Shown here one piece after another: positions 5,365-51,111 of a DNA stretch of 64,000 bases. This DNA comes from Candidatus Altiarchaeota archaeon. Its GTDB lineage: Archaea > Altiarchaeota > Altiarchaeia > IMC4 > SCGC-AAA252-I15. Made by a program: the position numbers and the translations under genes. Each line of letters starts with the position of its first letter. Positions within the stretch are counted from its first letter, which is position 1. The notes beneath the pieces were generated by a model. It was not told the DNA's origin. It searched no databases and saw only the letters and a list, made by a program, of their open reading frames with translations. The stretch is from positions 8,887-72,886 of the forward strand of contig JAZDIN010000004.1 of the NCBI GenBank assembly GCA_043804895.1, read 5' to 3'.

Positions 5365-5443
5365 CCAGATCCGTGTACCCTATTTCCCCATCCCCAAATC
5401 CCCATGATTTTAAAGTCCTACGACCTACTCAGAAAGAGCATAT

Positions 5444-7325: not shown

Positions 7326-7389
7326 GTAGCGTAGTCACATAGAGTATCCCCCACCTAAAACGAACAGATTCTTCTAGTCCCGATCGGAG
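7326..7389 (+). repeat. R-family repeat, copy R2 (degenerate 5' hairpin, intact 3' part)
   Basis: The sequence gcgtagtcacatagagtatcccccacctaaaacgaacagattcttctagtcccgatcggag aligns with R1 and R4. It ends 1 nt before the stop codon of the ABC permease. Confidence 0.7.
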
Positions 7390-16400: not shown

Positions 16401-19400
16401 AGTGATGACAAATTCTCTAGGGTTGTTTTTTCTAGCCCCGCAACTACAGATAGTGTGTTGAACTCATCCTCCCTGCCGTCGGCTTTAAGCCAGAATGCGT
16501 CCTCAAGTACTGCCGTGGACTTCCCGTGCAGCTTCACGATTTCCGTGTGGTGTTCTCTGAGGAACTCGTCTGCGGAGGGGATGCTTCCCCTGTCAGCCCA
16601 GTTATAGTACCAGCCGGCCAATCCGAGGTCGCAGTTTTGAGGTAGTGTGTCCTCGAACTTCCTCTCCCCTTCGGATATGCCATGTAAGGCCGCCATTTTT
16701 TCCCCCATATTTTGTGGCGTCATATCGGTCAATGCTTCTCTGAGATGTGTGAAGTATTCGCCGTCAAGCAGTTGGAACCTGCCGACCTCTCGGATGTCCT
16801 GTGCGAATTGGCCTAGGTTGAGGACTCCCTTGATGACTTCGATTCTGCCCGCACCTACCACAGCCGATCTTAGCGTTTGGAGGGCTCTGACGACCGTCTC
16901 GGGCTTAGTGCCGCTGTGATTCTCTTTGAACTGTTTGATGAACTGTTGCGCTTCGCCGGTTGATGCGAAAAGCTTCGGGTTGTCGGACCAGATTCTGGAG
17001 AATTCCTCCCTGACTCCTCTGTCAAAGTCGCCAAACATCATATTCACTACCCTCGGCCTCTCCTCAGGGTGTATGCCCTCTGCCTCCCAGGAGCGGTCTC
17101 TTGCCTTTGTCAAGTCTGTGATGGTATTTTCCTGGTTCGCTAGTAAGGGCGTAAGGTGTTCGACGCCGGTGACCTTCAGTATGCTGTTGACTTCCCGGAG
17201 TGTGTTATCTCTTTTGGCTTCATCGTCTGAAATCGTTAGGATAACCTGGGCTTTCACACTCTCGTCGCCGCCTTTACCGAGCCTCCTCAATGCCTCCTCT
17301 GCAAGCTGCCACCGATTCTTTGGACCTGACCAGCGGGAGAGTTTTTCAAGATTTTCCGGTGTGAAAAAGTCTCTGTGCTCCCCCCCGACTAGGAGGCCCA
17401 GTATGCCACCCAGTTTACCTGCATTTTTCAGGGCGTGTAGGTGGTCTATTGTCCTTGGTTCCTCTTCGATGAGGTTACTGACAGTGTCGGAGGTGATTGC
17501 AGAGGTGTGTTCCGAGAGTAGGTTCAGATATTTCGCAGCCGACCCCTTCGAGGTCTCCTCAGCCCTCAGCAGGAGGGATGTAGTCCCTTCTGATGCTAGT
17601 AATGCACGCCTGTCAGGTTCAGAGTCCATGAACAGGTCGAAGTAATCTTGCACGTATGGTCTTTTGACCATCTCTTTCAGCGTGTCCCTGTAGTCTGGAT
17701 TGGTTAAACATGAGAAATATTTTAGAGCGTATTCTGCCTCCCTGCTGGAACCCTCTGGCATGTTCTCTGGCTGCTTTAGTTTAGTCCGGCCCTGGGCCGA
17801 CCTTAATAGGCGGTCCATCAACGGGCCCAGTATCTCCGGCTCCGCCTCCACTGTTTGCAGGAAGGCTTTACCAGTCTCTGATGTGGGTATGAGATACTCC
17901 TGCGCCCTCTCAATCCTATAGAAGCCTAATACGGTCTTGGGTGTGTCAGGCCCCATCCTTTCCAGCTGGTCCAAGTATTCTTGTGTTACCACCATGTCAA
18001 GACGGTCCATCCTATCCAGGGGTATCCTGTCAAGGGACTGGACATAGTCCACCATAAATTGTCTTTCAACGTTCCCCTTCTTTGAGATTAGCTCGTATAT
18101 CTCCGCCGGTATGTCCTTTTTTTCGCCTGGCTGGTCTTCTTTAACGAATAGTGTATTGATGTCTATGGATTCATCCCCTAAACCAGTGCCGCCGGTAACT
18201 CCCTCTGTCCAATATGCTGCTGAGAGTGGCTGATTCTCCCTGTTGAGCTTTATTACCCGGTCTATGAACTCGTTGAAGTGGTAGTTCATAGAAAGGCTCA
18301 CCCTGCCCTCCTGGACCTTAGCCAGCTTCTTGTCGACTTCCCTTTCTATGAGTCTCATACCGTCCAGGTTTTTTATATTCGTGGTGGCGGCTGGGAGTTT
18401 AGTCACAGCACCGTTTATCTCCTTAATCCATTTTAGCATCTGCTCCATCGAGTCTATGCTCCCCCACTGGTCCAACTCCTCCAGGGACAGGAGGAACGCG
18501 TTATTCGCTTCTTTCGCGTCTCCGAGTTGTTTTATGAAATTTGGGCTTTCTGGCTCGCCAGCGTTTACCGCGGATATTGCTTCTCTGAGCGAGGTCACAG
18601 GAGCTGAACTCCGTAGGACATAATGGAATTGTTCACGCATCTTTGTCATGTTGTCCGTTAGGCTGCCTAGAGCAATGACCGAATCATATGCCACGTCGAC
18701 AACGGCTGTGGAGTACAGCGTCTGTTGTTCGGGCTTAAGGGACAACACCCCCTTAACAACATCCATGAACTTCGCCGGGTTGATTTCCGATAGGGTATCC
18801 GGATGGAAAAAATCTTCGGGTTTGACTTCGGCTTCTGATTCTATCCCCTTAGTCCGTTCCAACACACCCTCGCGTACCGTCTCGAATGGTACGCCGGCCT
18901 TCAGCTTGGAGGCCATCTCCTCCATCACCTCTATCGCCGATTTGACGGTATCGGAGTCCCTTATTTTCGTCATACCGGCCCTAACGGTCTCCCTGGCGGT
19001 TATGTCCTCTTCTTTGATTGAACGTTCGATGATCTTATCGCTTTTCCAGTATTTCGTTCTTTTCCTCAGGTCCTTTAAGACGTGGTTGATTTCTTCACCG
19101 CCTTCAATCCTCTGGACGAATTCTTTTATCTCCCCGATAGCTGCTAGCACTATTATGTATCGTTCAACGCGGTCGTATGTTTCCTTCATTTGGGAGGAGT
19201 GCGTTCTAACTGCTGCGCTATACCCAAAGGCATCTGTCAGATGTTTCTGGGCCGCGTCAATGTCCTCAAACCCGATGGACGAAAGCGCCTGCTCCCGTAG
19301 GTCAGGTTTTAGGCGTAGGATGTAGGAGGGGTCGAATGACACTATTTTTCCGAGGACTGTCTTATCGTCTTGGGTGATGCTTGGCTCAGCGATTCTGAAG

Positions 19401-21277
19401 AGTAGGGACATGAATCTCCTCCTTGACGTTTCATCAGATTTTTCATGAGAAGTTAACGTATCGGAATAGGTCAGATTCACCCACCGGATTACGTGGTGGT
19501 TGGCTTTGTTTGCTATTTCCAGAGCACTGTCCTTTGTGTATGATTTATTGGTTTCCTGGTCTACTAGCACCCGCTCTTCACCGAATTTTACCCCGCGCAT
19601 CAGGAGGGCATATTCTGCCTGGATGAAAGACAACACCCTCCGCCTCATCTGCTTCTCATCCAACACGTCCACTGTAGGCCCCTCGCCCCCACCAAATGAG
19701 ACGGAGATTGGCATATTATCGCCACCTTCGTGTTCACGTAATTTAATGGTTGACAACAGCGTCTGCTCAGCCAGGCCTTTCTGCCTCGACTCTAATTGGG
19801 CAAGGTTGTCGATTGTCTCCTGCCTCGCGGCTGTAGCAAATTTAGGTTTCATGTGTTCAGGTATGGCAGCCAGCGACCTCACATAGGTTGGCATGAAAGG
19901 GAGCCCGCTGTTTTCTAGTATCAGTCCAAGGACTTCTGGTCGGCACAATCTGTCATCTACAGTCAACGCTGGTTGGCTGGAGGTGTCTATCTTAACAGCC
20001 GACTCCCAAAGTGCCTTAGCAACAAGTGGTGTCATCCTGTCAGAAAGTAACACGCCCATAAGGCTTGACATGTTCTCCTGGGCTTCTTTCAGGGTTACTG
20101 CCTCCCCATGGTCCTTTAAACGTTCTCCCATACCGTCCAGACCACGCTTTATTGACTTGACATAGTCTTCAGTGTCAGGGGGTAAGGGGGAGTCGACAAG
20201 GGCATCGGTTAGATTAGAGGCCCACCCTATCATTTTTAGTATGGGGACACCCATCCCCCATGCATTCAGCTGCCTGGAGACTTTTAAAATCTCCTTATTT
20301 GCAGCATCCAGTATTTTAAGCTTTTTCTGGAACGTCTTCGTCCCAGCTTCCTCGCCCGCAACATCAGTTAAACAGGCAGCCCATTTTTTCAAGATCTCCT
20401 CTTCACCCATATTCGAGGCGATTGTCCCGCCAAGATCTAGCACAGCCAAGGATGCATTTGTCAAGCTCCCCGCAGAATTTATTCCTACACCGAATAGCAG
20501 GGTTGTATAGAACTTTTTCTCCCCTTCCGCTAATTTTCCCTCATTCAGTAATTCGGACATGCGGGTAATAACACCCTTCCTCAAATCAAATACCTGACTG
20601 GGGTTTAGTGCCTCTTCGCTCTGGTTTGACCAGAATTCGGATGGGCTTACCTCCTGACCAGCGTCATACTTGCCTTTTACTTCCCGCATTTTTTTGACAA
20701 TACCGTGACCTGTCCGTTCAAAACGGAATCCGGCCCTCACCGCATCCAGTGCCTTACCTGCCCCATCTTGACTGAAACCAATCGCTTTCAAAGTATCAAC
20801 TGCCTCGTCTTCTTTCAGAAGGAGTAGAGAGTATGCTGATGGCGCAAACCTAAGCTCATCACCCATGAAAGTCGTGTCCAAGAGTAAATTGAACAACTGC
20901 TTGTCAGGTAGGCCCTTGGTTTTTGCACCCAATTCGAGTATTTCACCAACTATCACCTCGGACATTTTCTTGTCCATTTTTTCGGAGGCGAGGGAGTCGC
21001 TGAAACGCCATAAAAGCCATTTCAGATATTTTGGATTGCTCTGCTCAACTGCCTTGAGTACCTGGTCAAGTTTGACATCTGAATATTTTTCCTTAACCTG
21101 AAATTCGCCTTTTTTCACATAAACCGGTAGCGTGCCCTTAACCGGCCCATCTGCTTTTTCGAATACCTTCTGGATGTAGTCTATTATTCTTTTTCTTGTT
21201 TCCATGACTCCATCCATCAGTGGGGGGAGCCCTCCGCCATCACCCCAATGGTAGTACTTTGTAGGGCCTAGTGGCAT
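13412..21277 (-). CDS. Giant hypothetical protein (2621 aa), cytoplasmic and largely alpha-helical, with four C-terminal winged-helix-like modules
   Basis: A single uninterrupted 7.9-kb ORF. All + strand ORFs across it are short shadow ORFs. I see no signal peptide, TM segment, P-loop or HExxH. The C-terminal 450 aa shows a fourfold pattern ending LRELSRLGVV, LRELRHVGILL, VQSLKKQGLIIPVGTRGYYALT and VDRLEKAKILE. Confidence 0.8.
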   Translation of the reverse strand: MPLGPTKYYHWGDGGGLPPLMDGVMETRKRIIDYIQKVFEKADGPVKGTLPVYVKKGEFQVKEKYSDVKLDQVLKAVEQSNPKYLKWLLWRFSDSLASEKMDKKMSEVIVGEILELGAKTKGLPDKQLFNLLLDTTFMGDELRFAPSAYSLLLLKEDEAVDTLKAIGFSQDGAGKALDAVRAGFRFERTGHGIVKKMREVKGKYDAGQEVSPSEFWSNQSEEALNPSQVFDLRKGVITRMSELLNEGKLAEGEKKFYTTLLFGVGINSAGSLTNASLAVLDLGGTIASNMGEEEILKKWAACLTDVAGEEAGTKTFQKKLKILDAANKEILKVSRQLNAWGMGVPILKMIGWASNLTDALVDSPLPPDTEDYVKSIKRGLDGMGERLKDHGEAVTLKEAQENMSSLMGVLLSDRMTPLVAKALWESAVKIDTSSQPALTVDDRLCRPEVLGLILENSGLPFMPTYVRSLAAIPEHMKPKFATAARQETIDNLAQLESRQKGLAEQTLLSTIKLREHEGGDNMPISVSFGGGEGPTVDVLDEKQMRRRVLSFIQAEYALLMRGVKFGEERVLVDQETNKSYTKDSALEIANKANHHVIRWVNLTYSDTLTSHEKSDETSRRRFMSLLFRIAEPSITQDDKTVLGKIVSFDPSYILRLKPDLREQALSSIGFEDIDAAQKHLTDAFGYSAAVRTHSSQMKETYDRVERYIIVLAAIGEIKEFVQRIEGGEEINHVLKDLRKRTKYWKSDKIIERSIKEEDITARETVRAGMTKIRDSDTVKSAIEVMEEMASKLKAGVPFETVREGVLERTKGIESEAEVKPEDFFHPDTLSEINPAKFMDVVKGVLSLKPEQQTLYSTAVVDVAYDSVIALGSLTDNMTKMREQFHYVLRSSAPVTSLREAISAVNAGEPESPNFIKQLGDAKEANNAFLLSLEELDQWGSIDSMEQMLKWIKEINGAVTKLPAATTNIKNLDGMRLIEREVDKKLAKVQEGRVSLSMNYHFNEFIDRVIKLNRENQPLSAAYWTEGVTGGTGLGDESIDINTLFVKEDQPGEKKDIPAEIYELISKKGNVERQFMVDYVQSLDRIPLDRMDRLDMVVTQEYLDQLERMGPDTPKTVLGFYRIERAQEYLIPTSETGKAFLQTVEAEPEILGPLMDRLLRSAQGRTKLKQPENMPEGSSREAEYALKYFSCLTNPDYRDTLKEMVKRPYVQDYFDLFMDSEPDRRALLASEGTTSLLLRAEETSKGSAAKYLNLLSEHTSAITSDTVSNLIEEEPRTIDHLHALKNAGKLGGILGLLVGGEHRDFFTPENLEKLSRWSGPKNRWQLAEEALRRLGKGGDESVKAQVILTISDDEAKRDNTLREVNSILKVTGVEHLTPLLANQENTITDLTKARDRSWEAEGIHPEERPRVVNMMFGDFDRGVREEFSRIWSDNPKLFASTGEAQQFIKQFKENHSGTKPETVVRALQTLRSAVVGAGRIEVIKGVLNLGQFAQDIREVGRFQLLDGEYFTHLREALTDMTPQNMGEKMAALHGISEGERKFEDTLPQNCDLGLAGWYYNWADRGSIPSADEFLREHHTEIVKLHGKSTAVLEDAFWLKADGREDEFNTLSVVAGLEKTTLENLSSLLRQEEGPFRAAAGAELIKKEKLPEWKTLSRDSERTQRLIDHINAGDWAYAEFILATSYLTKGGGESVDTYLHPNFIPQDKQDQLEFLTADTRKKRQKTAAWHFLSPQLEQLEKDLKSSEPRIDPELIPKQKYRDDLEEHKRISRPILEDIVYQLDVIIGMVEPPKPAPAEPAEDKTLTVGEGATTEEIPAKPLPPQVDVVEAERVIEGVLRIWTLNLGKELGEDAYLRMLDLAKWNNNFRIFMTGKTAARDIEKKIIPAVKRMGGVGESDFQMGFLTHILQNTKNIDECTDLGRIDRGVKLAEEMSEVLSKLPDVELGEDATKESILRAVFLGRPSDFGALTESYGTLNVNMRIRKLQKIDAKDLKKRGIDTTEYFRAIAKQPILIDFLTRKEALDEIQTLDTWERKSSKVWGLVEDYLRKVGSGKHRGLASIDALKNLNRIGAEKLYGQTGSLPPTMLIDSRHLKDVNKTMVVVGKLNKEGSISYVEYTRILGKDPEEEDEGEVSTTPSTTASSTHKMTRKELMQKDMILMDGKVFANPYKRRPQPDFPHPFHAFQRYVNAETINNRRLSYVEEELAKAVSHFTGHLEIKKLAELCSKHPVLGVIYPDTEAGRIEGIKADLRELSRLGVVTDPETSPSVSDGCLLRDIKSDDGKTTSWDQTNENVNKMRLERLLLNVKDDKLEAARLIINIISNKPNHTVGRDDLVTDCLTNGCPGLPETKDVMNPYVRDLLRELRHVGILLEADHETDAISPHILKEKPRSYEDHRDVHILKDMYEITVPNPAMVLHPALEDREAEIEERISRFPNPYAARAVLKVISNVLLVGQGIMKREGINKEVAQDLGIDESKVNNVVQSLKKQGLIIPVGTRGYYALTKKFPGDENLENLAQETLGKILSEEVRGTAETKDIMVKIIETLSGHRLNLWHTIRQRHLERLCMHLYWQNPSENEDLPHTPKEIIDVVDRLEKAKILEQQPDMEARTYWVSDEMLSGPRKY

Positions 21278-23012: not shown

Positions 23013-23435
23013 TCAGAGGTATTTCTCGAACTCGGCCCACTGCTCCGCTGAATATCCCCCGTTCTCCTTCAGCCAGGATAGGGTATAGATATACCCCTCG
23101 ACATTCAGCCACCGACCATAGTCTACTGGCCTGGAAGCCATAATGTATTTACGAGACAGCTGCGATAATAAGACATTCAGTTTCTCACTACCCAGCGGGT
23201 CTAGCATCTCCCTAGCAACTTTTTGAGAAAGGTTTACGTCATGTGTCTTACCTAGCACATGGTAATACAGTATTTTGCTCGGAAGTTCTGACAATAGTAG
23301 TCTATCCTCATCCCCACTGGCTACGGCACCTATATGAGATTTCCCCCTTGTTACATCGTATAGTGGAGAATGTACTGTGTTTTCATCAGTGATGGAAACA
23401 GTATCAATACCCTCATCATACAGTGGCTTTTCCAT
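23013..23435 (-). CDS. Hypothetical protein (140 aa)
   Basis: The ORF abuts the ilvD stop (convergent) and lies 11 nt downstream of the 244-aa ORF. No motif recognised. AT-richer by eye. Confidence 0.5.
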   Translation of the reverse strand: MEKPLYDEGIDTVSITDENTVHSPLYDVTRGKSHIGAVASGDEDRLLLSELPSKILYYHVLGKTHDVNLSQKVAREMLDPLGSEKLNVLLSQLSRKYIMASRPVDYGRWLNVEGYIYTLSWLKENGGYSAEQWAEFEKYL

Positions 23436-23446
23436 ACCCTCGTGAC

Positions 23447-24181
23447 CTATTCCCGGGTTGTTACTACGGCTGCGCCAGGGTTTTTCACCCTGACTTCCTT
23501 TAAAAGTTCCCTGAACTCAGAATCTCTCTTCGAAAGCACTATTGGTGTCCTATCCACAACAGCCCGTAGAGTCTGCATATATCCTCGAATGTCGCCTAAG
23601 AGGGCAATGCGATAGGCTTGGGTTGGCAACACCTCAACCTCCATACACTCTAGCCATGTCTTGAAAGATATGTCCTCGCAGACAGTAGGTAATCCTCTAA
23701 AGCCTTCAGTCAACTCCGAGATATAGGCCCGTTTATACTTCTTTACATGTTCAAATGTCGTTCTCAACTCCGTATCACGTAACCGAGCAGGCAACTTCTG
23801 GACCCTTGTTTTGATATCCTCATACCGGTAAGGGTCTGTGATGACGTCCTCCAAGACTAAGACCGTCTTATCATGTTTCTTTCTTATCTCGTCCATACGT
23901 GCAAACGACCATTCTTCATTTACTCGACCACCATGCGGACCGTAGATGAAGTAGACTGGCTGGTCCAGCTCCTGCAGGAACTTGTCCTGTGTGCCATGAC
24001 TTCGGCGGTAAAAATACTGCGCCTGAAGGGTGCCATTTCTGGCTAGAAGCTCATACAACATGTCCAGCTTCTTCTGGCGCCTAACCTCCCCTACCTCCAT
24101 CGGCTGCCTAAGCCCAACATAATTTTCTTTTCCAAATTCATCTCTGGATAGGCCTGGAACAACTAACTCTTTTTGCCCCAT
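23447..24181 (-). CDS. Hypothetical protein (244 aa)
   Basis: The ORF fills the interval. No motif recognised. Confidence 0.55.
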   Translation of the reverse strand: MGQKELVVPGLSRDEFGKENYVGLRQPMEVGEVRRQKKLDMLYELLARNGTLQAQYFYRRSHGTQDKFLQELDQPVYFIYGPHGGRVNEEWSFARMDEIRKKHDKTVLVLEDVITDPYRYEDIKTRVQKLPARLRDTELRTTFEHVKKYKRAYISELTEGFRGLPTVCEDISFKTWLECMEVEVLPTQAYRIALLGDIRGYMQTLRAVVDRTPIVLSKRDSEFRELLKEVRVKNPGAAVVTTRE

Positions 24182-30231: not shown

Positions 30232-30242
30232 TTTCGAGAGAT

Positions 30243-30304
30243 ATAGCTGAGGGCATAACTCTTTAGACCTCTTAGGGGGTATAGTGAGCCTTGTGCCCTC
30301 AGAT
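30243..30304 (-). repeat. Hairpin module M3 (62 nt), copy B
   Basis: Its reverse complement aligns with 45365-45426: atctgagggcacaaggc...ttatgccctcagctat. The terminal arms ctgagggca and tgccctcag pair. Confidence 0.75.
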
Positions 30305-30351
30305 ATATTCGAGAGCATAAAATCCAAGTCAAGAAGGTTATGCTCTCGACT
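30305..30351 (-). repeat. Hairpin module M1 (47 nt), copy B
   Basis: The reverse complement, agtcgagagcataaccttcttgacttggattttatgctctcgaatat, has a perfect 12-bp stem (tcgagagcataa / ttatgctctcga). It aligns with 45264-45310. Confidence 0.75.
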
Positions 30352-30397
30352 ATAATATAGTAAGGACGGTTACGTTAAAAATAGGCGACCACAGCCT

Positions 30398-30452
30398 GTG
30401 ACTGAGAGCCGCTGCTCTCAGACACATTCAGCAACCATTGGCTGCTGAATAT
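30398..30452 (+). repeat. Hairpin module M2 (55 nt), copy B
   Basis: gtgactgagagccgctgctctcagacacattcagcaaccattggctgctgaatat forms two hairpins joined by the conserved acacattc. It aligns with 45311-45364, with compensatory changes in both stems. Confidence 0.75.
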
Positions 30453-30554
30453 CAACGACTGCCGGCTAAAGCCGGCAGTTTGATACGCCGGAAACTACCT
30501 AGTCGAGAGGACTCCCTGAGGGTGTCCCCTGAAGGGGACAGTTTCCGAGCGTAT
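30453..30554 (+). repeat. 102-nt structured element, copy Y (intergenic, directly abutting M2)
   Basis: caacgactgccggctaaagccggcagtttgatacgccggaaact...gtcccctgaaggggacagtttccgagcgtat. The first 45 nt or so and the last 25 nt or so are near-identical to copy Z. It is preceded by TAT and ends in TAT. Confidence 0.8.
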
Positions 30555-30766
30555 AAAGGCTGCGGTATTCTCGGATTCAGCAAGTATGCACTCACGCAAC
30601 ATACTGCCGAATCCTCGAACGGGACGACCCCCATATTTTCCTCAGTCTAGGTGGTCTTAGCTTCGTTCTATTAAAGATAGCGTAAGATTGTTAGGAGATT
30701 CCAGGATATACCTATTGATGGTTTTGATTTACCCTACCAACAGAAAAGGACAGCGATCAACAGAAA

Positions 30767-31339
30767 CTATGTTCTCATTAGAAATAGGAGTAGGAGTATT
30801 GGTGAAAAAATTATTATGACAAGACAAATATCCCCCAGAACATATGCAAGGAACGATCGCCAAAAGCTTATTTGATGCAATTTACTTAGCCCAATGATTT
30901 GAAGCACTCCCATATATGCGTAGGATATGTGACTCACATAGGGTATGCTCATCAACAAAAGGTGGGGGGTCGCACCATAACTGAATGCTTTATAAGTCTC
31001 CGAAAAGTTACCACTCCCACCTAGAATTCTTGTAAAAACGTGTATCAACCCCGATGTGAAGAACGTGGCGATAAAAAATACAATATATAAAAAAGAGGTG
31101 TTAATTAACACGATTATAGTGACGTGACCACTACTGCTGAAATTTTGGACAATCACAGTTACTACAAAGTCGATCAACATAGCGATCGGCAATAAAACAA
31201 ACAAATAGCTGACGGCTTTTTTTATACCCTCCTCTGAATGAATCTCAGTCCAACAAGTGTTTGGTTCAAACAATATTGATTTAACTCTTGGAATAAAAGC
31301 CATAACAGTAGAGTGCTTTGCTTTGCCTTTAGTTTTCAC
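30767..31339 (-). CDS. Yip1-domain-like polytopic membrane protein
   Basis: 190 aa, or 178 aa from MAFIPRV at 31303. A short N-terminal segment is followed by 5 TM helices, and the pattern resembles the Yip1/DUF1282 family. AT-rich. Confidence 0.5.
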   Translation of the reverse strand: MKTKGKAKHSTVMAFIPRVKSILFEPNTCWTEIHSEEGIKKAVSYLFVLLPIAMLIDFVVTVIVQNFSSSGHVTIIVLINTSFLYIVFFIATFFTSGLIHVFTRILGGSGNFSETYKAFSYGATPHLLLMSIPYVSHISYAYMGVLQIIGLSKLHQISFWRSFLAYVLGDICLVIIIFSPILLLLFLMRT

Positions 31340-31546
31340 GATAAATACTTGTGTTCTTATATTTTAGTACCTGTGTGTTTATGAGGTGTTTCTAAATGAG
31401 TTTTCAGCACGATCTCCTGAAACTCCGCTATTCTCCCTTTGCTAGAATAGTCCGGCTACTTCTTACCGCCTTTTTCCCATCCTCCGTCACTCACTTTTTA
31501 TCCTCTTAGGATAGAGGTTAAAAACGATTATTTCATTTTCTTGAGG

Positions 31547-31594
31547 TTCCCCCACCTAAATCGAACAGAGTGTTCTAGTCCCGGTCGGGGCGAA
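31547..31594 (+). repeat. R-family repeat, copy R3 (3' part only)
   Basis: ttcccccacctaaatcgaacagagtgttctagtcccggtcggggcgaa aligns with the 3' half of R4. Confidence 0.7.
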
Positions 31595-31714
31595 GTTATC
31601 CAATTCCCTAATATATGTCGGTTATGACGTCCTTAGCTTGTACTGTCTGAGCCTCCTGAGAGATTTGAACACTTTGTACGAGGTAATGTTTTTACCCCTA
31701 CAAAATGCCTAATT

Positions 31715-31757
31715 TGTAGTCATATTTTTGTAGTCATATTTAAACTTGTAGTCATAT
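31715..31757 (+). promoter_or_regulatory. Three direct copies of tgtagtcatat immediately upstream of the Fic ORF
   Basis: Copies lie at 31715-31725, 31729-31739 and 31747-31757. The 9-mer gtagtcata is the 3' arm of the R-family hairpin, and its complement tatgactac overlaps the Fic stop at 32705-32713. Confidence 0.6.
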
Positions 31758-31758
31758 A

Positions 31759-32709
31759 GTGTTATTGATGCACATTGAGGTTCAGGAGCGCGGCGGGAAG
31801 AAGTTCATTTATGTGGCTCATTCCTTCCGTCATGGGGGTAAAGTTAGGAAGTTGAGGAAATATCTAGGAGTCAACCTTAGTGGAAAGGAGATATCTTCTT
31901 TGAGGCCTGCTGCTGAGAAGGCGCTGATGTGGCGGGCTGAGGCGAGTAAGAGCATCCGCGACCCCCTGAAGACTGTTTTGTCTCCTCAGGAGATGGCGTC
32001 TATCAAGTCCTTGATTGGAAAGCACGACATTAAGATAAGCCATCTGTCTGAAAAACAGTGGGTTAGATTCACCGAACTCTTCGCATATGATACTAACGCC
32101 ATAGAAGGGTCAACAGTGGATTTGGCCGAAGTCAAAGGCATATTGGAGAGAGATAAGTGGCCTGACAAGGCGAAGGATGAGATTGCTGAGACATATGGGG
32201 TGTCTGACGCAGTCAAGTTGATTAGGAGGACTAAAGAACACCTGTCAATCGAGTTGATAATGGAACTACACAAAATTGTTTTCAAGAACTCTAAAGGGTT
32301 CGCGGGTAGGCTGCGCCCACCTGGAGTAGAAGTAGTGGTCACAAACCGTTTTGGAGAGATCATCCATAGAGGCGCACCCCAAAAACATGTCTTGAAACTT
32401 CTAAAGGAACTCGTGGAATGGTACGCAGAAAACAAGAAACGATACCACCCTATTGTCCTTGCAGCTGTCGTCCACAACCACTTCGAAAACATCCACCCAT
32501 TTGAGGATGGAAACGGGAGGGTTGGAAGACTCCTATTGAACAACATACTACTTAAGCACGACCTCCCCCCAGTTAACATTGAATTAAAAAACAGAAAAGG
32601 GTACTACGCTTCTTTACAAGCGTACGAAAAGGCGGGTAATCTCAGACCAAGTATAGAGTTGGTATTAACGTCCTATGACAGACTCAAGAAAACCCTGAGG
32701 AGTATATGA
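31759..32709 (+). CDS. Fic-domain protein (AMPylase / Fido family)
   Basis: Carries the canonical Fic motif HPFEDGNGRVGRLL. The ATG at 31768 (MHIEVQERGG) is the more likely start; the track starts at the GTG at 31759. Confidence 0.85.
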   Translation: MLLMHIEVQERGGKKFIYVAHSFRHGGKVRKLRKYLGVNLSGKEISSLRPAAEKALMWRAEASKSIRDPLKTVLSPQEMASIKSLIGKHDIKISHLSEKQWVRFTELFAYDTNAIEGSTVDLAEVKGILERDKWPDKAKDEIAETYGVSDAVKLIRRTKEHLSIELIMELHKIVFKNSKGFAGRLRPPGVEVVVTNRFGEIIHRGAPQKHVLKLLKELVEWYAENKKRYHPIVLAAVVHNHFENIHPFEDGNGRVGRLLLNNILLKHDLPPVNIELKNRKGYYASLQAYEKAGNLRPSIELVLTSYDRLKKTLRSI

Positions 32710-32789
32710 CTACATGCCCCAGAGGCGTAGTCATACAGAGTTTCCCCCACCTAAACCGAACAAACTGTTCGAGTCCCGATCGGGGCGAC
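32708..32789 (+). repeat. R-family repeat, copy R4 (best-preserved copy)
   Basis: tatgactac (32705-32713) and gtagtcata (32727-32735) form the hairpin. Then come tttcccccacctaaa, the hairpin cgaaca-aac-tgttcg, and gagtcccgatcggggcgac followed by a T6 run. Confidence 0.8.
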
Positions 32790-32930
32790 TTTTTTCAAGG
32801 GGGTACTAGTTCTGTTATAATTTATTTTTAGCTTATTTGGTTAGGGTTCATTTGTTAATGTGAGGGGGTTTGAACCTTAAAGTTGTAGTCTTGATGTAAT
32901 TACCGCTTGCCAGCAGTGCAAACACGCCTG

Positions 32931-34520
32931 TTAGGAGTGGATGATGTTGGCTGCCAAAACCCCGAAGCCCACCATTGTGCAGATTATTATTGTTAAGACG
33001 GTTAAAGTCACCAGCGCAATTCCCAGTATTATGATTTTTACCTTGTTTATTCTTTTTTTAGGGGGTAAAAGGTAGTAGGTACCGATGACAGTTGTCAGAA
33101 ATATCGATACACCGAAGACGATCGTCGCAACCACAAAAACCAATCCCCCGAATATCATGGTGTTAGTGTTTGGACCGTTGGGGACCTCAACGATCGCAAA
33201 TGTGCTCAAATGAGGAGCAAGCGCAGCATAACGGCATATGTTGCTGTCACAACTAATCTTCCAACTAGGAAGTTTTTCCCAGGATTTTTTATCCTCATTA
33301 TATATTGCAACAGCAACCCCTTTTGCATTAGCAGCGTCTGAGGCTTGCTTACCTAAAAGAAGTTTAGTAAATGAATCCCAGCTATAACCTTGAGGCTTAT
33401 ATTTGGCAGCATCAGATTTTGTTTCTAAGTATTTAAATAAATCTTGCTGGGATTTAAGCTGCTCTGCAGTAACCTTAGACTCAGATTCAGAGTAGGCATA
33501 ACTATGTCTTGTCGTTGAGAATTCTATAAGTGCCTGCGAATAATCTTCATAAGGCTGATCATTATTCTTAGTGTTCACAACAAGCATCTTATCAACCTGC
33601 TCGCCATTTTTACTAGGATAATCAGGAGCTCTGTTTGCGCCCCTATAATTCTGCCAATCTTTTCCATAAATAACAGAAACATCCATGGTAGCATCATCAG
33701 TAGGTTGTTTTAAAGTAGTGGTAATCCGGGTGACTGTTGCACCCTCAGGCAATGTGGCGCTTACATCGTCCCCTGATTTTCTATTTTTTATATTATATTC
33801 TACATTAATCTTTGGCAAAGATTCTCCAATACCTTGCTGTTTTAAAGTGTCTGCTGAAACTGAATTTCCATCTTCATCTGAAATCTTTCCAGCAGGCAAT
33901 TGAACTGCTTGCCCCACCCAGTCATCTATTGCAGAGCCAATAATTTGCTGAGCCTGAGCTATTTGTTGTTCCTGTTCTTCCTGAGATGCAATTCTCTTTA
34001 TGCACCGGCTATTTTCCCAGGAGCAGATATAGAATGTGGCGCAACTGTTGAGGCATTTCTGCTTTGCATCATCTTGTTGCTGCGATTGCGTCGTGGTGGT
34101 TCTGGGTTGGGTTGTTGTGGTCTTAAACAAGGTAGTGCTAGGCGGTTGCGGCTGTGTTGAGGTGGTGGTCCTGATCCTTTTTATGCACTGGTGATTCTCC
34201 CAGGAACAGACATAGAATGATGCGCAGCTGTTGATGCATTTAGTCCGATCATAATTTTCATCATAGGTGCAGCCCCCGGTTATGCTGTACCTGGCCCCAT
34301 ATTCTGCCGCACCAGCCCGACACTGCGCAACACCGTTAGCAACCAATTGTTGACATGAAGCTTGGTCAGGGAAATATTTCGGCCCCCAGCATTCCTTGTA
34401 ACCCTGTATAAAACAACAGCCTTCGAATTTCCACGGCCCCTCTCCAGAAACGGCAGAAAAACCTCCACTCATTAAAAGTCCAAACACAACTATGATGGAA
34501 AAAAGTTTTTTCTGTTTCAT
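32931..34520 (-). CDS. Secreted / membrane-anchored Cys-rich surface protein
   Basis: Signal peptide MKQKKLFSIIVVFGLLMSGGFSAVSG. The module C.NSCA.FY.CSWEN..CIKRI is duplicated, separated by T/Q-rich linkers (TTTSTQPQPPSTT, TTTTQPRTTTTQ). There are two C-terminal TM helices. Confidence 0.7.
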   Translation of the reverse strand: MKQKKLFSIIVVFGLLMSGGFSAVSGEGPWKFEGCCFIQGYKECWGPKYFPDQASCQQLVANGVAQCRAGAAEYGARYSITGGCTYDENYDRTKCINSCASFYVCSWENHQCIKRIRTTTSTQPQPPSTTLFKTTTTQPRTTTTQSQQQDDAKQKCLNSCATFYICSWENSRCIKRIASQEEQEQQIAQAQQIIGSAIDDWVGQAVQLPAGKISDEDGNSVSADTLKQQGIGESLPKINVEYNIKNRKSGDDVSATLPEGATVTRITTTLKQPTDDATMDVSVIYGKDWQNYRGANRAPDYPSKNGEQVDKMLVVNTKNNDQPYEDYSQALIEFSTTRHSYAYSESESKVTAEQLKSQQDLFKYLETKSDAAKYKPQGYSWDSFTKLLLGKQASDAANAKGVAVAIYNEDKKSWEKLPSWKISCDSNICRYAALAPHLSTFAIVEVPNGPNTNTMIFGGLVFVVATIVFGVSIFLTTVIGTYYLLPPKKRINKVKIIILGIALVTLTVLTIIICTMVGFGVLAANIIHS

Positions 34521-34609
34521 ATCTGCTTTCTAGCCACAATTACCTATTAAACTACACTATTAAAAACAATCTTAATCTCATGAAACTGTGAAACCACATT
34601 ATGACATAT

Positions 34610-34714
34610 GACTACAAAAACCTAAGAGGTAGTCATACAAACTCAAATGTCACCAGTTTGCGTCTATCGTTTTCTTTGGGGATTCGAACAAACAATTCGA
34701 GTCCCAATCGGGGC
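34610..34714 (+). repeat. R-family repeat, copy R5 (hairpin and 3' core conserved, middle diverged or expanded)
   Basis: tatgactac (34607-34615) and gtagtcata (34629-34637), then cgaacaaacaattcgagtcccaatcggggc ending 1 nt before the stop of the class II aldolase gene. Confidence 0.7.
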
Positions 34715-35263
34715 TCATCGACAGTATACCCTTTGTATCAGTTTGAACGCCTCCTCGAGTGTGGCGCCTACTGCGACGACTCCGTGCCGTCGTATCACAA
34801 TGTAATTTGATTTTCCGAGAGCCTCCACGACGTCCCTCGCCTGACTTAGTGTTCCGTAGGGGTGGACCCGGTCTGTGACGACGAGGCCTAGGGGGTTTTT
34901 GACTGCCAGGCTGTCGTGGGCGTGTATCACCGCGTTCACCTTCGGATACTTCTGGTATATGAGCCAGTGCATCGGAACCTCAGAGGACGGCTCAACTGAA
35001 CCCACCACATGGGCGGTCCTGTTTTTGAATTCGCGGACTTCGACTATACCCCCCGGAGTTAACTGGCCTTTGTTTTTTCCGCCGGGGGTGATTAACATCC
35101 CCTTCTCTGTTCTGACGCTGATGTTGCCTGCGTTCTCGGGGGTGAGGCCCATCTCGTTCAGCTTCCTGCCTACGGCGACGATGGATTCGGCTGCACTGCC
35201 ACCAGCTGAGAATTTACTTAGGAACTTTGTCCTGAACTTCCTGCCAACGTACTCCTCAGCCAT
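34715..35263 (-). CDS. Class II aldolase/adducin-family protein (FucA / MtnB-like)
   Basis: 182 aa with GNISVR, SSEVPMH and AVIHAHD (Zn-binding His pattern). Confidence 0.8.
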   Translation of the reverse strand: MAEEYVGRKFRTKFLSKFSAGGSAAESIVAVGRKLNEMGLTPENAGNISVRTEKGMLITPGGKNKGQLTPGGIVEVREFKNRTAHVVGSVEPSSEVPMHWLIYQKYPKVNAVIHAHDSLAVKNPLGLVVTDRVHPYGTLSQARDVVEALGKSNYIVIRRHGVVAVGATLEEAFKLIQRVYCR

Positions 35264-36555: not shown

Positions 36556-38895
36556 TCAGACGACTGAAGGCCCGTTTTGCTTTTGCAGTTCCCTGAAGAA
36601 GGAGTCTATCTTCCCCAAGTCAACGCCATCAGAGAAGTACTTATCAAACAACGGCTCAACCTGGCCTTTGGCGCCGTGATAGTCCGAATCGCCCCCATGT
36701 TGCCAGGAGTCATATCCAGCTGATTTGAAACGGTCATGGTGAAGCATTCTGTCTACTGTATACCCCTCCTGCCACTTAGGGATGCCATACTCCTGGATTT
36801 TTGGTTCAAGCTGCAGGCGCATGGTATCCCGGGCGAGCATATCCCTCAACTCCTCGGGGCTCTTATGTTCCCCGGCAGAACTGAGTTCCCTGAAGAATGC
36901 ATCTATCTTTCCCAGGTCGACTCCGTCAGCGAAGTATTTATCAAACAGCGGGTCTACCTGGGCTTTGGCGCCGTGATAATCAAAACCTTCCGGACCCTGC
37001 CAGCGGGGTTTACCTGTTTTCAGGCCCGTATAATCTGTGGACTGGAACTTCTCGACTATCATCTTGTCGACTACATACTCCTTTTGCCACTGAGGGATTT
37101 TATAGTCCTGTATGAATTTTTCAAGTTGCAAATGCATGGTTTCGTGGACTATCGTGTTCTTCAACTCCTTTGGAGTTTTCAACTCCCCATTAGAATTGTA
37201 GAGGTTATCAAGTATCTGGCGAGTCTTCAGGTTATAACTACCGCCCACCCCATAGTCAGTTAGAACGATTTCAGAGGGGAGTACAACCTTTTCCCCGAAT
37301 ATACCGGCTAAATCCTTGAAGTATTTGCCCAGGGTCGCCCAATATTCCTGCGTTATCTTTGATTCCTCAGCTAAGAACTTGTTAGAGTCATGCTCTTTCT
37401 TTATTGCAGCCTCTATTTCAGGCGTTGTCGACTGCTTACTAACTCCGGAAGGCAGCTTAAGGCCTAAACCTTTGCCATATACTTCTTCTTTCCCGAATAC
37501 TTCGGCCAATTCGTCGATGTATTCGCCCAAATTCTGCCCATACTGCTGCATCATCTTTGATTCAGCATCCAAGAATCTGTTGGGAGTATACTCGCCTTCA
37601 AGAGGCAGGTTGGGAGGTGGGTCCCAGAAGTATCTGTTCTGGGCGTAGAGCATGTTCTTTACAACCCCTATTTGACTTTCTAAATCTGATTTAAAATTAA
37701 GCCCAACTGCAGCTTCGTTCTTTCCCTGGGGATTGTTGATGCCCGCAAACTCGGCGAAGTTTTTGTCCTTCCTGTGCTCGAACAGCTCTACGATGCCGAT
37801 AAGACCTTTATTGCCGTCTACGTCATACGGTCTGCAAAGCGTCCCGACCAGTTGGTCGACACCTATCCCCTTCTCCTTCGCGTTGTCAACCACGGACTCC
37901 CACATCTTAAGGCCTAGGAAGTATAGGGGGTGATCCTCACGATAGTTTAACTGCGGTTCCAAACCCAGTTTCCGTATGATTGTCTCGTCCATGTATGATG
38001 CGAAGCCCTCATGGGTGAGGCTCGAGTCGGAGAGGCCGTTGGGGTGGTCCTTGTTTAGCCGGACTATTGTATGTTCGTCCTCCAGTATTATCCTCTTTTC
38101 ACTCCGGAGTTCACTGTAGATTGAACGGACCCGCCTATCATCAAGTTTGACTTCAGACCCTTCAAAGTTCTTCGGTACGTTTTTTTTATTTTCCGCCTCT
38201 ATTGCGTTATTCCGGATGTGGCTTCCCTCATGGATAAACCCGTCAAGGACGCCAACCAATGGCTGTTCCTCATTAGGCCTGTAGAAGACAGCCTCCCCGT
38301 CTGCAGCTACACCGTGTTTCGCTGCGAATTCTGCTGTCCGGTCACGCGTACCCCGGATACTTTGGGCTATGTCGGTCAGGCCGTATTTTTCATTCCCAAG
38401 GAGTTCGGCCATGTCTGTTAGCCGCTGGAGGAAGGTGCTGTTGATTACCTCTCCTCCACTATGGCTTGCTTTTTCGCCTTCCGCATACCATAGTCTTCTA
38501 AGATTATCCTTGTCTTTGAGCATTCTCTCTAGGGTCCCTTTGTATGATTCTCCTTCCTTCATTTCCCGTATGAGTCTAACATGGAATAGAGAAACGTGGA
38601 AATCCTCTTTTGAAGCCGTGTACATGCCGATATCCAAGCCGCTTTCATCCTTGAGGAGGCGATTTGCTATGGCAGGGATGACCTCCAATGCCTGCTCACG
38701 TGGTAGACAGAGTATATTCTTAACCAATTCTGGTAATTTGTCCGTAGGAGTCGTATCTGGAGAAGTAACTCGCTGTATGGCATCAGCAATCTTCAATTTC
38801 CTGCTCCTCTCATCCAGTTCATCGATTAGGGGGTTTCTAGCTGTTATATTGGAATCACCCTCTTTATGGGGGTTTTCTATTACTTTCGGGCTCAT
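36556..38895 (-). CDS. Large hypothetical protein with two HExxH motifs (putative Zn-metallopeptidase-like) and a C-terminal tandem duplication
   Basis: 779 aa, with FIHEGSHI near aa 230 and IVHETMHL near aa 588. The last ~190 aa are two ~95-aa repeats (PKELKNTIVHETMHLQLEKFIQDYKIPQWQ...DYHGAKAQVDPLFDKYFADGVDLGKIDAFFREL versus PEELRDMLARDTMRLQLEPKIQEYGIPKWQ...DYHGAKGQVEPLFDKYFSDGVDLGKIDSFFREL). The duplication is also visible in the DNA (36560-36880 versus 36880-37200). Confidence 0.7.
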   Translation of the reverse strand: MSPKVIENPHKEGDSNITARNPLIDELDERSRKLKIADAIQRVTSPDTTPTDKLPELVKNILCLPREQALEVIPAIANRLLKDESGLDIGMYTASKEDFHVSLFHVRLIREMKEGESYKGTLERMLKDKDNLRRLWYAEGEKASHSGGEVINSTFLQRLTDMAELLGNEKYGLTDIAQSIRGTRDRTAEFAAKHGVAADGEAVFYRPNEEQPLVGVLDGFIHEGSHIRNNAIEAENKKNVPKNFEGSEVKLDDRRVRSIYSELRSEKRIILEDEHTIVRLNKDHPNGLSDSSLTHEGFASYMDETIIRKLGLEPQLNYREDHPLYFLGLKMWESVVDNAKEKGIGVDQLVGTLCRPYDVDGNKGLIGIVELFEHRKDKNFAEFAGINNPQGKNEAAVGLNFKSDLESQIGVVKNMLYAQNRYFWDPPPNLPLEGEYTPNRFLDAESKMMQQYGQNLGEYIDELAEVFGKEEVYGKGLGLKLPSGVSKQSTTPEIEAAIKKEHDSNKFLAEESKITQEYWATLGKYFKDLAGIFGEKVVLPSEIVLTDYGVGGSYNLKTRQILDNLYNSNGELKTPKELKNTIVHETMHLQLEKFIQDYKIPQWQKEYVVDKMIVEKFQSTDYTGLKTGKPRWQGPEGFDYHGAKAQVDPLFDKYFADGVDLGKIDAFFRELSSAGEHKSPEELRDMLARDTMRLQLEPKIQEYGIPKWQEGYTVDRMLHHDRFKSAGYDSWQHGGDSDYHGAKGQVEPLFDKYFSDGVDLGKIDSFFRELQKQNGPSVV

Positions 38896-50363: not shown

Positions 50364-50732
50364 ATGTTCTACGGGAGGAATATACCAGCAGCGTTGATGA
50401 GAAGTGGGTTAGAGGATAGGCTGCTTAGGGTGTGCGAGGAGGAGGACTTGTCCTACCTGGCATTGTTCGGCTCCTATGCTAGGGGGAAGGCGAAACCAAG
50501 GAGCGATTTGGACATAGCGATAGAGTATGAGAAAGGCGCGGATAAGACACTCTTTGACTTGATTTCATTGGAGGAGAGGTTGCGGAGGCCTTTCAGGAGG
50601 AAAGTCGACCTTGGGATTCACGATACCATAAGCCCGCACGTGATAGATAACGTCAGGAAGGACATGAGGGTCATATATCAACGACTGCCGGCTAAAGCCG
50701 GCAGTTTGATACGCCGGAAACTGCCTAGTTGA
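50364..50732 (+). CDS. Minimal nucleotidyltransferase (MNT antitoxin); its C-terminus is extended by insertion of element Z
   Basis: LFGSYARGKAKPRSDLDIAIE matches the GS...D.D NTase motif. The last 17 aa, QRLPAKAGSLIRRKLPS, are encoded by the 102-nt element and recur in the spurious ORF 30438..30650. Confidence 0.75.
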   Translation: MFYGRNIPAALMRSGLEDRLLRVCEEEDLSYLALFGSYARGKAKPRSDLDIAIEYEKGADKTLFDLISLEERLRRPFRRKVDLGIHDTISPHVIDNVRKDMRVIYQRLPAKAGSLIRRKLPS

Positions 50733-50780
50733 GTGGAGTACATGCAACTGTCCCTTGGAAGGGACAGTTTCCGAGCGTAT
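50679..50780 (+). repeat. 102-nt structured element, copy Z (inserted at the MNT/HEPN junction)
   Basis: caacgactgccggctaaagccggcagtttgatacgccggaaact...gtcccttggaagggacagtttccgagcgtat. It is flanked by TAT (50676-50678) and ends in TAT (50778-50780). Removing it restores an overlapping gene pair. Confidence 0.85.
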
Positions 50781-51111
50781 GAGAAACGATAAGGCCTACA
50801 TCAAACACATATATGATACGATAATTGATTTGGAGGGGTTCACAAAGGACGCGACCCTAACGGATTTCCTTAAAGACACGGAGAAACAATACGCTGTGAT
50901 ACGGGCCTTTGAGGTCATAGGCGAGGCCTCCAAGAACATAAGCGCTGAATTCAAAAAGAAGCATCCTGGTGTGCCGTGGACGAAGATGTCTGCGATGAGA
51001 GATAATTTGATACACGGATACTTCGGAGTCAACCTTGAGTTGGTCTGGAGCACAGTGAAGGTGAACATACCAGAGATAAAGAACAGGATAAAAGCGCTGA
51101 AGGCGAGGTGA
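50779..51111 (+). CDS. HEPN-domain protein (DUF86 type), toxin partner of the MNT
   Basis: MRNDKAYIKHIYDTI... with the R(x)4-6H motif RDNLIHGY. The track ORF starts 24 nt upstream, inside the element. Confidence 0.75.
   Translation: MRNDKAYIKHIYDTIIDLEGFTKDATLTDFLKDTEKQYAVIRAFEVIGEASKNISAEFKKKHPGVPWTKMSAMRDNLIHGYFGVNLELVWSTVKVNIPEIKNRIKALKAR

Follow-up and report, generated by a model that had tools for sequence, protein, structure and literature searches.

We analysed a 64,000-nucleotide stretch of the genome of a Candidatus Altiarchaeota archaeon (assembly GCA_043804895.1, contig JAZDIN010000004.1, positions 8,887 to 72,886; hereafter the window). It contains two low-GC islands whose units end in copies of a repeat that we call R. 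Here we focus on the second of them, island 2, which lies just past the 3' end of a class II aldolase gene. A preliminary description, drawn from the letters of the sequence, had proposed that island 2 is an accessory island of mobile units, each made of a gene plus R. Composition, synteny, and the recurrence of cassettes in other genomes support this proposal.

Three R-ended units at the 3' end of an aldolase gene

Island 2 covers ~4.1 kb (30614-34714) and is divided into three units, each with a copy of R at its end (Table 1). Its AT-richness, evident to the eye, was confirmed by measurement: the GC content in 200-nt windows is 0.33-0.47 from ~30650 to 34700 versus 0.52-0.57 in both flanks, and it changes in sharp steps at ~30600-30700 and ~34700, at the proposed ends of the island. 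The preliminary description put the core ends of R3, R4, and R5 at 31594, 32789, and 34714, which was right within 1 nt, and the intervals between them at about 0.95, 1.2, and 1.9 kb; we measured 966, 1195, and 1926 nt.

Pfam matches and translations confirmed that each unit holds one gene: a Yip1-like gene on the minus strand, a fic gene on the plus strand, and a gene for a 529-aa Cys-rich protein on the minus strand. Proteins of the Fic/Doc family share the motif HxFx(D/E)GNGRxxR, and the canonical Fic motif that had been reported, HPFEDGNGRVGR, is present in the translation of the second gene. Judged by their sequences, the unit 2 gene is thus a member of the Fic/Doc family (PF02661 plus HPFEDGNGRVGR) and the unit 1 gene a member of the Yip1 family (PF04893; the match spans profile positions 2-168 of 173). 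The ATG at 31768 is the likely start of fic, and the top PADLOC match of its product is the SoFic defence model (3.4e-33). The Fic and aldolase proteins each match a protein of an NCBI Candidatus Altiarchaeota MAG with 100% identity. The Yip1-like gene has a GC content of 0.37. We sought homologues of its open reading frame (ORF) at E<=1e-10 in a 5.8-billion-protein collection to map the left end of unit 1, and found none. The ORF's own record was likewise not returned, and the ORF may be uncalled in the deposited metagenome-assembled genome (MAG).

The 529-aa ORF has no Pfam match; a PGF-pre-PGF domain appeared at a sub-threshold score only. Its translation displays a signal-peptide-like N-terminus, T/Q-rich linkers, two C-terminal hydrophobic stretches, and two copies of a C(I/L)NSCA(S/T)FY(V/I)CSWEN..CIKRI module. 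The protein is predicted to be secreted or membrane-anchored.

The right junction of island 2 is formed by the stop codon of the aldolase gene (TCA on the plus strand, 34715-34717): the core of R5 ends at 34714, 1 nt before it. At the right end of island 1, R2 merges into the TTA stop (7390-7392) of an ABC-2 permease gene. As first described, the right-hand R thus adjoins the stop codon of a minus-strand core gene in both islands. We observed a third such case on a related contig, L018, where the right-most R (5497-5546) runs into the TCA stop of a minus-strand gene for a 391-aa Cys-rich secreted protein.

R in the window and in other genomes

We searched for R with a sequence-only covariance model built from 14 copies (cmsearch), alongside a direct-repeat search. 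The window contains exactly five copies of R, all on the plus strand and all inside the two islands (island 1 extends over 4.1-7.4 kb). The next-best match of the model in the window has an E-value of 0.84, and the ~55 kb of core DNA hold no copy. The conserved stretch of R is ~50 nt long, AGTTCCCCCACCTAAAC-CGAACA-NNN-TGTTCGAGT-CCCGATCGGGGCGA, and terminates in a 14-nt near-palindromic core, CCCGATCGGGGCGA. The identity among copies is only ~80-90% over 50 nt. The preliminary description had recognised a real repeat, though not its full length: R measures ~50 nt and forms a single arm within a larger composite site.

When one genome per species was scanned for the exact pattern, a single match emerged, in another Candidatus Altiarchaeota MAG (L001). 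A metagenome scan gave eleven R loci, eight with an extended consensus and three chance-like, and further loci were gathered via Fic homologues. The R-bearing metagenome contigs have an overall GC content of 0.45-0.53, close to that of the islands. The R pattern matched nothing in the viral contigs of IMG/VR (two patterns), the plasmids of PLSDB, or the phages of INPHARED, and R is absent from a more distant Altiarchaeota fic locus (L020).

R is accompanied by a second motif, the box GTAGTCATA, with 10 matches in the window versus 0.30 expected. Two inverted boxes form a hairpin upstream of R1, R4, and R5, and a degenerate form lies upstream of R2. Three direct boxes around a TATA-like TTTAAA precede fic, an arrangement found also in L001, L007, L013, and L014. 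These boxes are probably an operator/promoter for a regulator. The inverted pair overlaps the fic stop codon, and the combination of direct and inverted boxes is kept at five other fic loci; inverted boxes stand ahead of R1 and R5 as well, although non-fic genes precede there. At R1, the preceding DNA (5400-5445) resembles the last ~12 fic codons (GTCCTAYGAC..ACTCA.GAAA), though the gene at this place is rsgA-like. This resemblance suggests that R1 originated as the 3' end of a fic cassette.

Conserved arms re-assort at the core

Conservation continues past the core. We call the conserved ~95 nt just after it the P' arm. Clustering of the flanks of 35 cores, 45 nt on the upstream and 100 nt on the downstream side, gave two upstream classes, R (class 1) and a 'GTTCGCCTAARGCG' class (class 2), plus sites without a recognisable upstream arm. 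Downstream there are four P' classes. The two sides combine freely: upstream R is joined to P' class 1, 2, 3, 4, or none, upstream class 2 to P' classes 1, 2, and 3, and the armless upstream sites to P' classes 1 and 2. The class 1 P' arm of the fic unit has conserved counterparts in other fic cassettes (L013, L007, L019, L014) and in one VapBC cassette (L003), with local-alignment scores of 45-46 versus a null maximum of ~21 (0/200 shuffles as good). The class 2 P' arm of unit 3 scores 47 to L007_3712 and 32 to window_4085 (again 0/200). The P' motif GGGRNTTYGAAC is the inverse of TGTTCGAGTCCC in R, and the repeated motif is thus found in both orientations; GGGRNTTYGAAC itself occurs four times in the window, always in island 2, versus 0.37 expected.

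Alignments of related cassettes placed the unit boundaries at the core. The fic cassettes share ~115 nt from the boundary after GCGA to the boxes (TAC..CCGATTA...GTATATGT.GGTTAT...AACCTC..GGGATTCGAACAC). Because this shared DNA begins directly after the preceding core, the fic unit spans core to core. At the other end, the homology of the window's fic cassette with those of L001, L013, L014, and L007 stops at 32780-32800, which is the core of R4. Likewise, the homology of a VapBC cassette shared by L012 and L003 stops no more than 5 nt past the core, and that of a membrane-protein cassette shared by L012 and L007 begins ~10 nt past it.

The ends of the islands differ from their inner junctions. 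The P' arm is significant after the left core of island 1, R3, and R4 (0/200 shuffles as good), and after the right-most copies R2 and R5 there is none (0.65-0.73 of shuffles as good). In many loci the final 3-7 nt of the core are altered at the right-most sites (CGGAGTTA, CGGGGCTCA, CGGGGCTT, CGGAGCGT, CGGGCCTA); inner sites retain CGGGGCGA. Hybrid right-most cores are expected if the right half is supplied by the target. Taken together, the presence or absence of arms and the deviant right-most cores form the pattern expected of attL-, attP-, and attR-like junctions that arise from conservative exchange inside the core.

Table 1. Positions of the sites, units, and genes of island 2 and of the related sites of island 1 (numbering of the window).
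Feature	Position	Strand	Details
Island 1 left core	4072-4085	+	CCCGAACGGGGCGA; 1 mismatch to R core; class 2 P' arm after it
Inverted box hairpin, R1	5441-5471		
R1	5471-5523	+	E=8.7e-12; island 1, after rsgA-like gene
R2	7338-7390	+	E=3.3e-15; right end of island 1
Island 2 left core-like site	30614-30627	+	CTCGAACGGGACGA; proposed attL-like junction
Unit 1	30628-31593		966 nt; Yip1-like gene, R3 at end
Yip1-like multi-pass membrane protein	30767-31339	-	Pfam PF04893, 1.2e-11, 45.3 bits (cutoff 28.6)
R3	31541-31593	+	57.9 bits, E=4.5e-17; core 31580-31593 (CCCGGTCGGGGCGA)
Unit 2	31594-32788		1195 nt; fic gene, R4 at end
P' arm class 1, 5' end of fic unit	31594-31710	+	Motif GAGATTTGAACA at 31660-31671
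Three direct GTAGTCATA boxes	31716-31756	+	Around TTTAAA, upstream of fic
Fic-domain protein	31759-32709	+	Pfam PF02661, 1.2e-19
R4 plus upstream box hairpin	32700-32788	+	
Inverted box hairpin, R4	32705-32735	+	
R4	32735-32788	+	64.2 bits, E=4.9e-19; core 32775-32788
Unit 3	32789-34714		1926 nt; Cys-rich gene, R5 at end
P' arm class 2, start of unit 3	32789-32890	+	Motif GGGGTTTGAACC at 32865-32876
529-aa Cys-rich ORF	32931-34520	-	ORF and translation
R5 plus box hairpin	34602-34716	+	
Inverted box hairpin, R5	34607-34637	+	
R5	34665-34715	+	39.1 bits, E=3.4e-11; core CCCAATCGGGGC
Class II aldolase, flanking core gene	34715-35263	-	Pfam Aldolase_II, 2.3e-30

We considered whether the units could be non-autonomous single-strand transposons of the IS200/IS605 or IS91 type, inserting 3' of ..CGGGGCGA, a sequence that the right end would recreate. 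Strict co-orientation and a short, target-like left boundary agree with such elements, the common unit end could serve as the next target, and R itself contains a short hairpin (CGAACA/TGTTCG), as does the DNA ahead of it (the box hairpin). However, a transposon end should be intact, whereas the right-most copies are altered in the very end of the core, and the hairpins are neither conserved nor covarying. Moreover, no TnpA/HUH gene was seen in the window or the related loci, and unrelated cassettes share P' arms that re-assort with the upstream classes. This makes transposition of this type highly improbable.

The same data bear on a second alternative: R, with or without P', might be a selfish or structural repeat of a lower-GC donor lineage, of the type of miniature inverted-repeat transposable elements (MITEs) or repetitive extragenic palindromes (REPs). 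The islands would then be transferred blocks whose modularity arose by homologous recombination. Indeed, R contains TGTTCGAGTCCC and P' its inverted repeat GGGATTCGAACA, ~75-100 nt away, as in a small element with terminal inverted repeats; the GC content of the R-bearing contigs is near that of the islands, and a recombinase was not found. Yet the copies are co-oriented in every contig regardless of gene orientation, and the core DNA of the window is free of them. Many sites break off exactly at the core on one side or the other, and upstream arms without the inverted repeat still occur with the same P' arms. We also judged copies of such limited identity to be a poor substrate for homologous recombination with breakpoints this precise. 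A dispersed MITE/REP was dropped as a description of R because the copies are clustered, co-oriented, and cut exactly at the core, and we regard the wider transferred-block explanation as unlikely.

The left ends of the islands

The left end of island 2 had been placed at a core-like match at 30612-30628 (13/18). Against the R core, the 14-nt site within it has 3/14 mismatches, and the window holds 15 such matches versus 5.9 expected. This match is weak because such matches are only ~2.5 times as frequent as chance predicts, and in this form the claim did not stand. The comparison with the left core of island 1 gave a different result. The two left cores are identical at 12/14 positions and both carry A where every R carries T; matches to CCCGAACGGGGCGA with at most 2 mismatches number four in the window versus 0.44 expected, each of them an island site on the plus strand. 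The site also lies on the GC step and on the same strand as the R copies. Thus, 30614-30627 is the probable left boundary of island 2 and the weakest of its boundaries.

Cassettes recur in other contexts and orders

R sites form arrays in other Altiarchaeota MAGs and in metagenome contigs as well. L007 carries four R and one core-only site within 8.4 kb, all co-oriented; L003 has three core-only sites and one R, with AbiE, VapBC, and a Cys-rich secreted protein among its genes; and L012 and L002 are further co-oriented arrays. The order of elements is Fic320-R-TBP-R-165aa-R-peptidase_C1+DUF333-core-Fic313-R in L019, core-Fic320-R-Fic313-R-... in L013, and R-[TrxR-like+PntA+PntB]-R-590aa-R in L009. 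In no contig examined did sites lie on both strands, and the gene order of the units differs from contig to contig.

Individual cassettes turn up beside different neighbours. The fic (fic313) gene with its boxes and R recurs at 74-83% identity in six other contexts (L001, L007, L013, L014, L018/19). The rsgA-like gene of island 1 is found again in L007, where it stands two units downstream of a fic and beside other R-bounded units. L003 and L012 share a VapBC unit; the next element is an AAA_14 gene in the former and a small membrane-protein unit in the latter, and this membrane-protein unit recurs in L007. A relative of the C-terminal part of the 529-aa protein, 27% identical, has the same placement after R in L012. 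The recurrence of fic plus R and of the rsgA-like gene in shuffled orders bears out the suggestion that homologous gene-plus-R cassettes occur at other R sites.

Units elsewhere measure 0.6-4 kb and hold up to four genes, several of them 2-4. Their cargo includes VapBC, AbiE, RelE-like proteins, SoFic-like Fic, NUDIX, and secreted Cys-rich proteins, and is typical of cassette arrays. Two R-bounded, cassette-like units are of another kind: one holds a paralogue of the TATA-binding protein (TBP; L019, 5323-5919) and the other a block of a TrxR-like gene with pntA and pntB (L009, reverse strand, ~830-4600). The cargo is thus not limited to defence or surface genes.

An empty site in relatives

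In relatives whose aldolase is 67% identical, the aldolase_II stop is followed by 42 nt, a 69-aa gene, a DeoC aldolase gene, and an alcohol dehydrogenase (ADH) gene. In the window, the same genes stand on either side of island 2; the relatives have neither island nor R at this place, and R is absent from all 38 kb of a relative's syntenic loci. The synteny thus agrees with an accessory island. The identity of the flanking aldolase in the relatives that we compared is at most 67%.

The hairpin cluster left of island 2 (30241-30554) is also absent at the relative's empty site. It comprises five short inverted repeats in a row (30241-30480; arms of 10-18 nt), between a small conserved gene and island 2, and a 106-nt hairpin-rich repeat (30449-30554). 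A second copy of the 106-nt repeat, 88% identical, lies at 50675-50780, where it spans the gap between the toxin-antitoxin genes MNT (50364-50732) and HEPN (50755-51111). The 106-nt repeat is unrelated to R and may be a MITE-like element. Repeat families do pile up at the left edge of the island, as had been noted, and those of the hairpin cluster are unrelated to R.

R compared with attC, dif, and tRNA-derived sites

The spacing of R sites resembles that of integron arrays: at least two co-oriented sites lie less than 4 kb apart in the window (0.97-1.9 kb) and likewise in L007, L019, L013, L003, and L009. The attC sites of integrons carry two inverted boxes, R'' (RYYYAAC) and R' (GTTRRRY), 55-140 nt apart, and fold into an imperfect single-strand hairpin whose structure is better conserved than its sequence. 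Searching both strands of the entire window, we found no RYYYAAC...GTTRRRY pair (>=6/7 complementary, 45-140 nt apart), and the unit boundary follows ..GGGGCGA, not the G of GTTRRRY. RNAalifold detected no consensus structure among 23 R copies. As single-stranded DNA (ssDNA), the 61-nt R (z=-0.8 and -1.3) and the R+P' junctions (z from -1.0 to +1.1) fold no better than shuffles. The conservation of R is one of primary sequence. R was dropped as an attC site because it has no boxes and no conserved or stable fold, and as a structured RNA or ssDNA element because it has no consensus structure and no significant fold.

These results weigh on the idea that island 2 is an ordinary integron array without an integrase, that is, a cluster of attC sites lacking integron-integrases (CALIN), with R as an attC that folds as ssDNA and is recombined by IntI. 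The short units with a co-oriented repeat at each end and the toxin-antitoxin and unknown-function cargo would suit a CALIN, and integrons, mostly CALINs, have been reported in 75 archaeal MAGs (PMC9668308). That survey relied on attC models of bacterial origin (Ghaly et al. 2022, PMC9668308). Besides the missing box pair, the missing structure, and the shifted boundary, about half of the cassette genes of the window point away from their site. The 20 scanned proteins of the window and those of the Pfam-annotated related loci include no Phage_integrase-type match and no IntI at an array head. We give the integron explanation almost no credence.

A dif site consists of two 11-nt inverted arms around a 6-nt spacer, 28 nt in all (PMC8371274). 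In R1-R4 the best 11-(6 to 8)-11 dyads pair at 5-7/11 positions, no better than shuffles. R5 alone has a full 11-7-11 dyad (GGGGATTCGAA/TTCGAGTCCCA, 9/11 complementary). R was dropped as a dif-like site because there is no dyad except in R5. These dyads also argue against modules moved by the host XerA at dif-like sites, in the manner of integrative mobile elements exploiting Xer (IMEX) or the pdif modules of Acinetobacter: those of R1-R4 do not rise above shuffles, and that of R5 lies 5' of the point where the cassette homology breaks. The near-palindromic core and the absence of a dedicated recombinase nearby, as expected for a housekeeping Xer, speak for XerA. The sites of pdif modules alternate in orientation, unlike the R sites, which are all co-oriented. 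Movement by XerA is thus very unlikely.

The last 22 nt of R (TTCGAGT-CCCGA-TCGGGGC-G) can be read as the T-loop, T-stem, and acceptor 3' end of a tRNA. The islands could accordingly be decayed tandem remains of integrative elements that target tRNA 3' ends (of the tycheposon or SSV/pTN3 type), with R as a partial-tRNA att site and the integrase and replication genes lost. This reading implies a host tRNA gene that ends in ...TTCGAGTCCCGATCGGGGCG. The P' arms bear an inverse T-arm-like motif, GGGGATTYGAAC, and descriptions of both tycheposon islands (bioRxiv 10.1101/2020.12.28.424599) and archaeal elements (PMC8371274) include tandem integration with scattered partial tRNAs. Nevertheless, ARAGORN found no tRNA or tmRNA gene in the window, both ends of both islands included, or in 13 related loci, and R has only chance-level matches to Rfam families at gathering and permissive thresholds, with no tRNA match even at the latter. 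The expected 5' strand of the T-stem is the most variable part of R. Units of 0.6-4 kb that are exactly bounded and recombined anew are unlike the product of random decay of 10-kb elements, and integrase fragments were not seen. An origin from tRNA-targeting elements therefore has a small chance of being right.

Other features of the window

Three further features of the window drew our attention. A 779-aa ORF (36556-38895; GC 0.48) has no Pfam match, is not bounded by R, and contains internal direct repeats of 120 nt (36587/36884) and 102 nt (37282/37480). A single ORF of 2621 aa occupies 13412-21277 on the minus strand. Two adjacent ORFs of 140 and 244 aa (23013-24181; GC 0.45-0.48) have no Pfam match and no R or core sites; thus, not all atypical DNA in the window is bounded by R.

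Discussion

Our observations comprise the anatomy of the site, the pattern of arms at the junctions, the re-assortment of arms at the core, the shuffled order of cassettes, the empty site in relatives, and the GC contrast. We propose that the cassettes move by conservative site-specific recombination at a composite site like lambda attP, with a recombinase that acts in trans, and we put the probability of this proposal at roughly 0.55. Island 2 would then consist of three mobile cassettes that have integrated immediately beyond the 3' end of the aldolase gene.

A cassette would consist of the ~95 nt P' arm, one gene (up to four elsewhere), an upstream arm of ~40 nt, most commonly R, and the 14-nt core. 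Its genes would lie in either orientation, each with its own promoter; because the genes face either way, they appear to rely on promoters of their own. Once excised, the circular cassette would carry arm, core, and P' as a composite site of ~150 bp. Strand exchange would take place inside the core and be catalysed by an enzyme encoded elsewhere, most likely a tyrosine recombinase; as its partner, the circle would use a short core-like sequence of the chromosome or the site of a cassette already resident there. Co-oriented tandem arrays would result. Their left end would keep core and P' (attL-like), the inner junctions R, core, and P', and the right end R and a hybrid core without P' (attR-like). 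The left and right cores of both window islands suggest an exchange point between core positions 6 and ~11, probably within CGGGG (7-11).

Several points weigh against this proposal. The left site of island 2 has no significant P' arm in the shuffle test and only a 12/14 core match, and R1, an inner site, has no P' arm either: the 3' end of a CDF gene begins 5 nt after it. An identical 15-mer, TCCCGAAGGGAGCAC, stands on both sides of the L014 fic cassette (9847-9861 and 11009-11023), which a single conservative crossover of a normal R with that target does not predict. Neither the Pfam scan of 20 window proteins nor the Pfam annotation of the related loci revealed a recombinase or transposase, and none was recognisable by inspection in the ORF translations of other R loci (L007, L008, L009, L013, L018). 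Movement is deduced from sequence comparison, with no circular junction and no polymorphism between near-identical strains seen among relatives that are at most 67% identical in the flanking gene, and all sequences come from metagenome assemblies. The L014 15-mer had also suggested a transposition model with target-site duplication; it was dropped for the window, where the left and right cores of both islands differ at four or more positions.

How does this locus compare with known systems? By function it appears closest to CALINs, while the architecture of its site is more reminiscent of a lambda-type attP with arms. Like CALINs, R arrays are tandem and co-oriented, with mostly one-gene units in which a site-like repeat end lies less than 4 kb from the next; the cassettes recur in different arrays and orders, carry toxin-antitoxin, defence, and secreted cargo, and adjoin no integrase. 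Site copies within one genome also resemble each other, as in CALINs. Unlike the sites of CALINs, R has no R''/R' boxes, no conserved hairpin, and no above-chance fold, its conservation lies in the primary sequence on both sides of the core, and its flanks re-assort. Unlike integrons, R arrays stand at the 3' ends of ordinary genes instead of at an attI beside intI, and their genes face either way.

The composite site of ~150 bp, with a short core and arms that carry GGGRNTTYGAAC in both orientations, resembles lambda-type attP, and the asymmetric attL/attR-like ends with hybrid right-end cores resemble those of lambda-type elements. However, R units are 1-4 kb long and hold only cargo, without integrase or excisionase; many cassettes share one site family, and the targets are short core-like sequences at gene ends. 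Tycheposon islands (bioRxiv 10.1101/2020.12.28.424599) share with R islands the repeated integration at one place, several tRNA-end-like att repeats, and plug-in cargo. Tycheposons, on the other hand, carry a tyrosine recombinase and replication genes and use real tRNA genes, whereas no recombinase and no tRNA gene was found with the R islands, and their units are far smaller. Small modules, short sites, and a recombinase encoded elsewhere are also features of pdif/IMEX modules. Unlike these, the R sites have no 11-6-11 architecture and do not alternate in orientation. Since the site features that define integrons, dif modules, and tRNA-integrating elements are missing from the locus, we did not assign it to any of these classes.

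In full-text searches on Altiarchaeota we came across no account of such a cassette system. The odds are close to even, though slightly against, that an Altiarchaeota clade carries a platform for cassette capture and shuffling that arose independently of integrons. In such a platform, a recombinase acting in trans would exchange cassettes of 1-4 genes at a double-stranded composite site made of the core CCCGATCGGGGCGA and interchangeable arms with T-arm-like GGGRNTTYGAAC motifs. Core-like sequences immediately beyond the stop codons of housekeeping genes would be the places where arrays start, and genes for defence (SoFic-like, VapBC, AbiE), for surface proteins, and even for metabolism (pntAB) or a transcription factor (TBP) would circulate as cassettes.

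To our knowledge, integrons are the only well-established system that packages single genes with a recombination site in arrays. If our proposal is true, the cassette organisation of accessory genes evolved more than once, and surveys based on attC would undercount cassette-borne gene flow in archaea. The signature of R, core, and P' can be searched for in genomes and reads. It would point to a recombinase that is open to identification and assay, and provide a handle on gene flow in Altiarchaeota.

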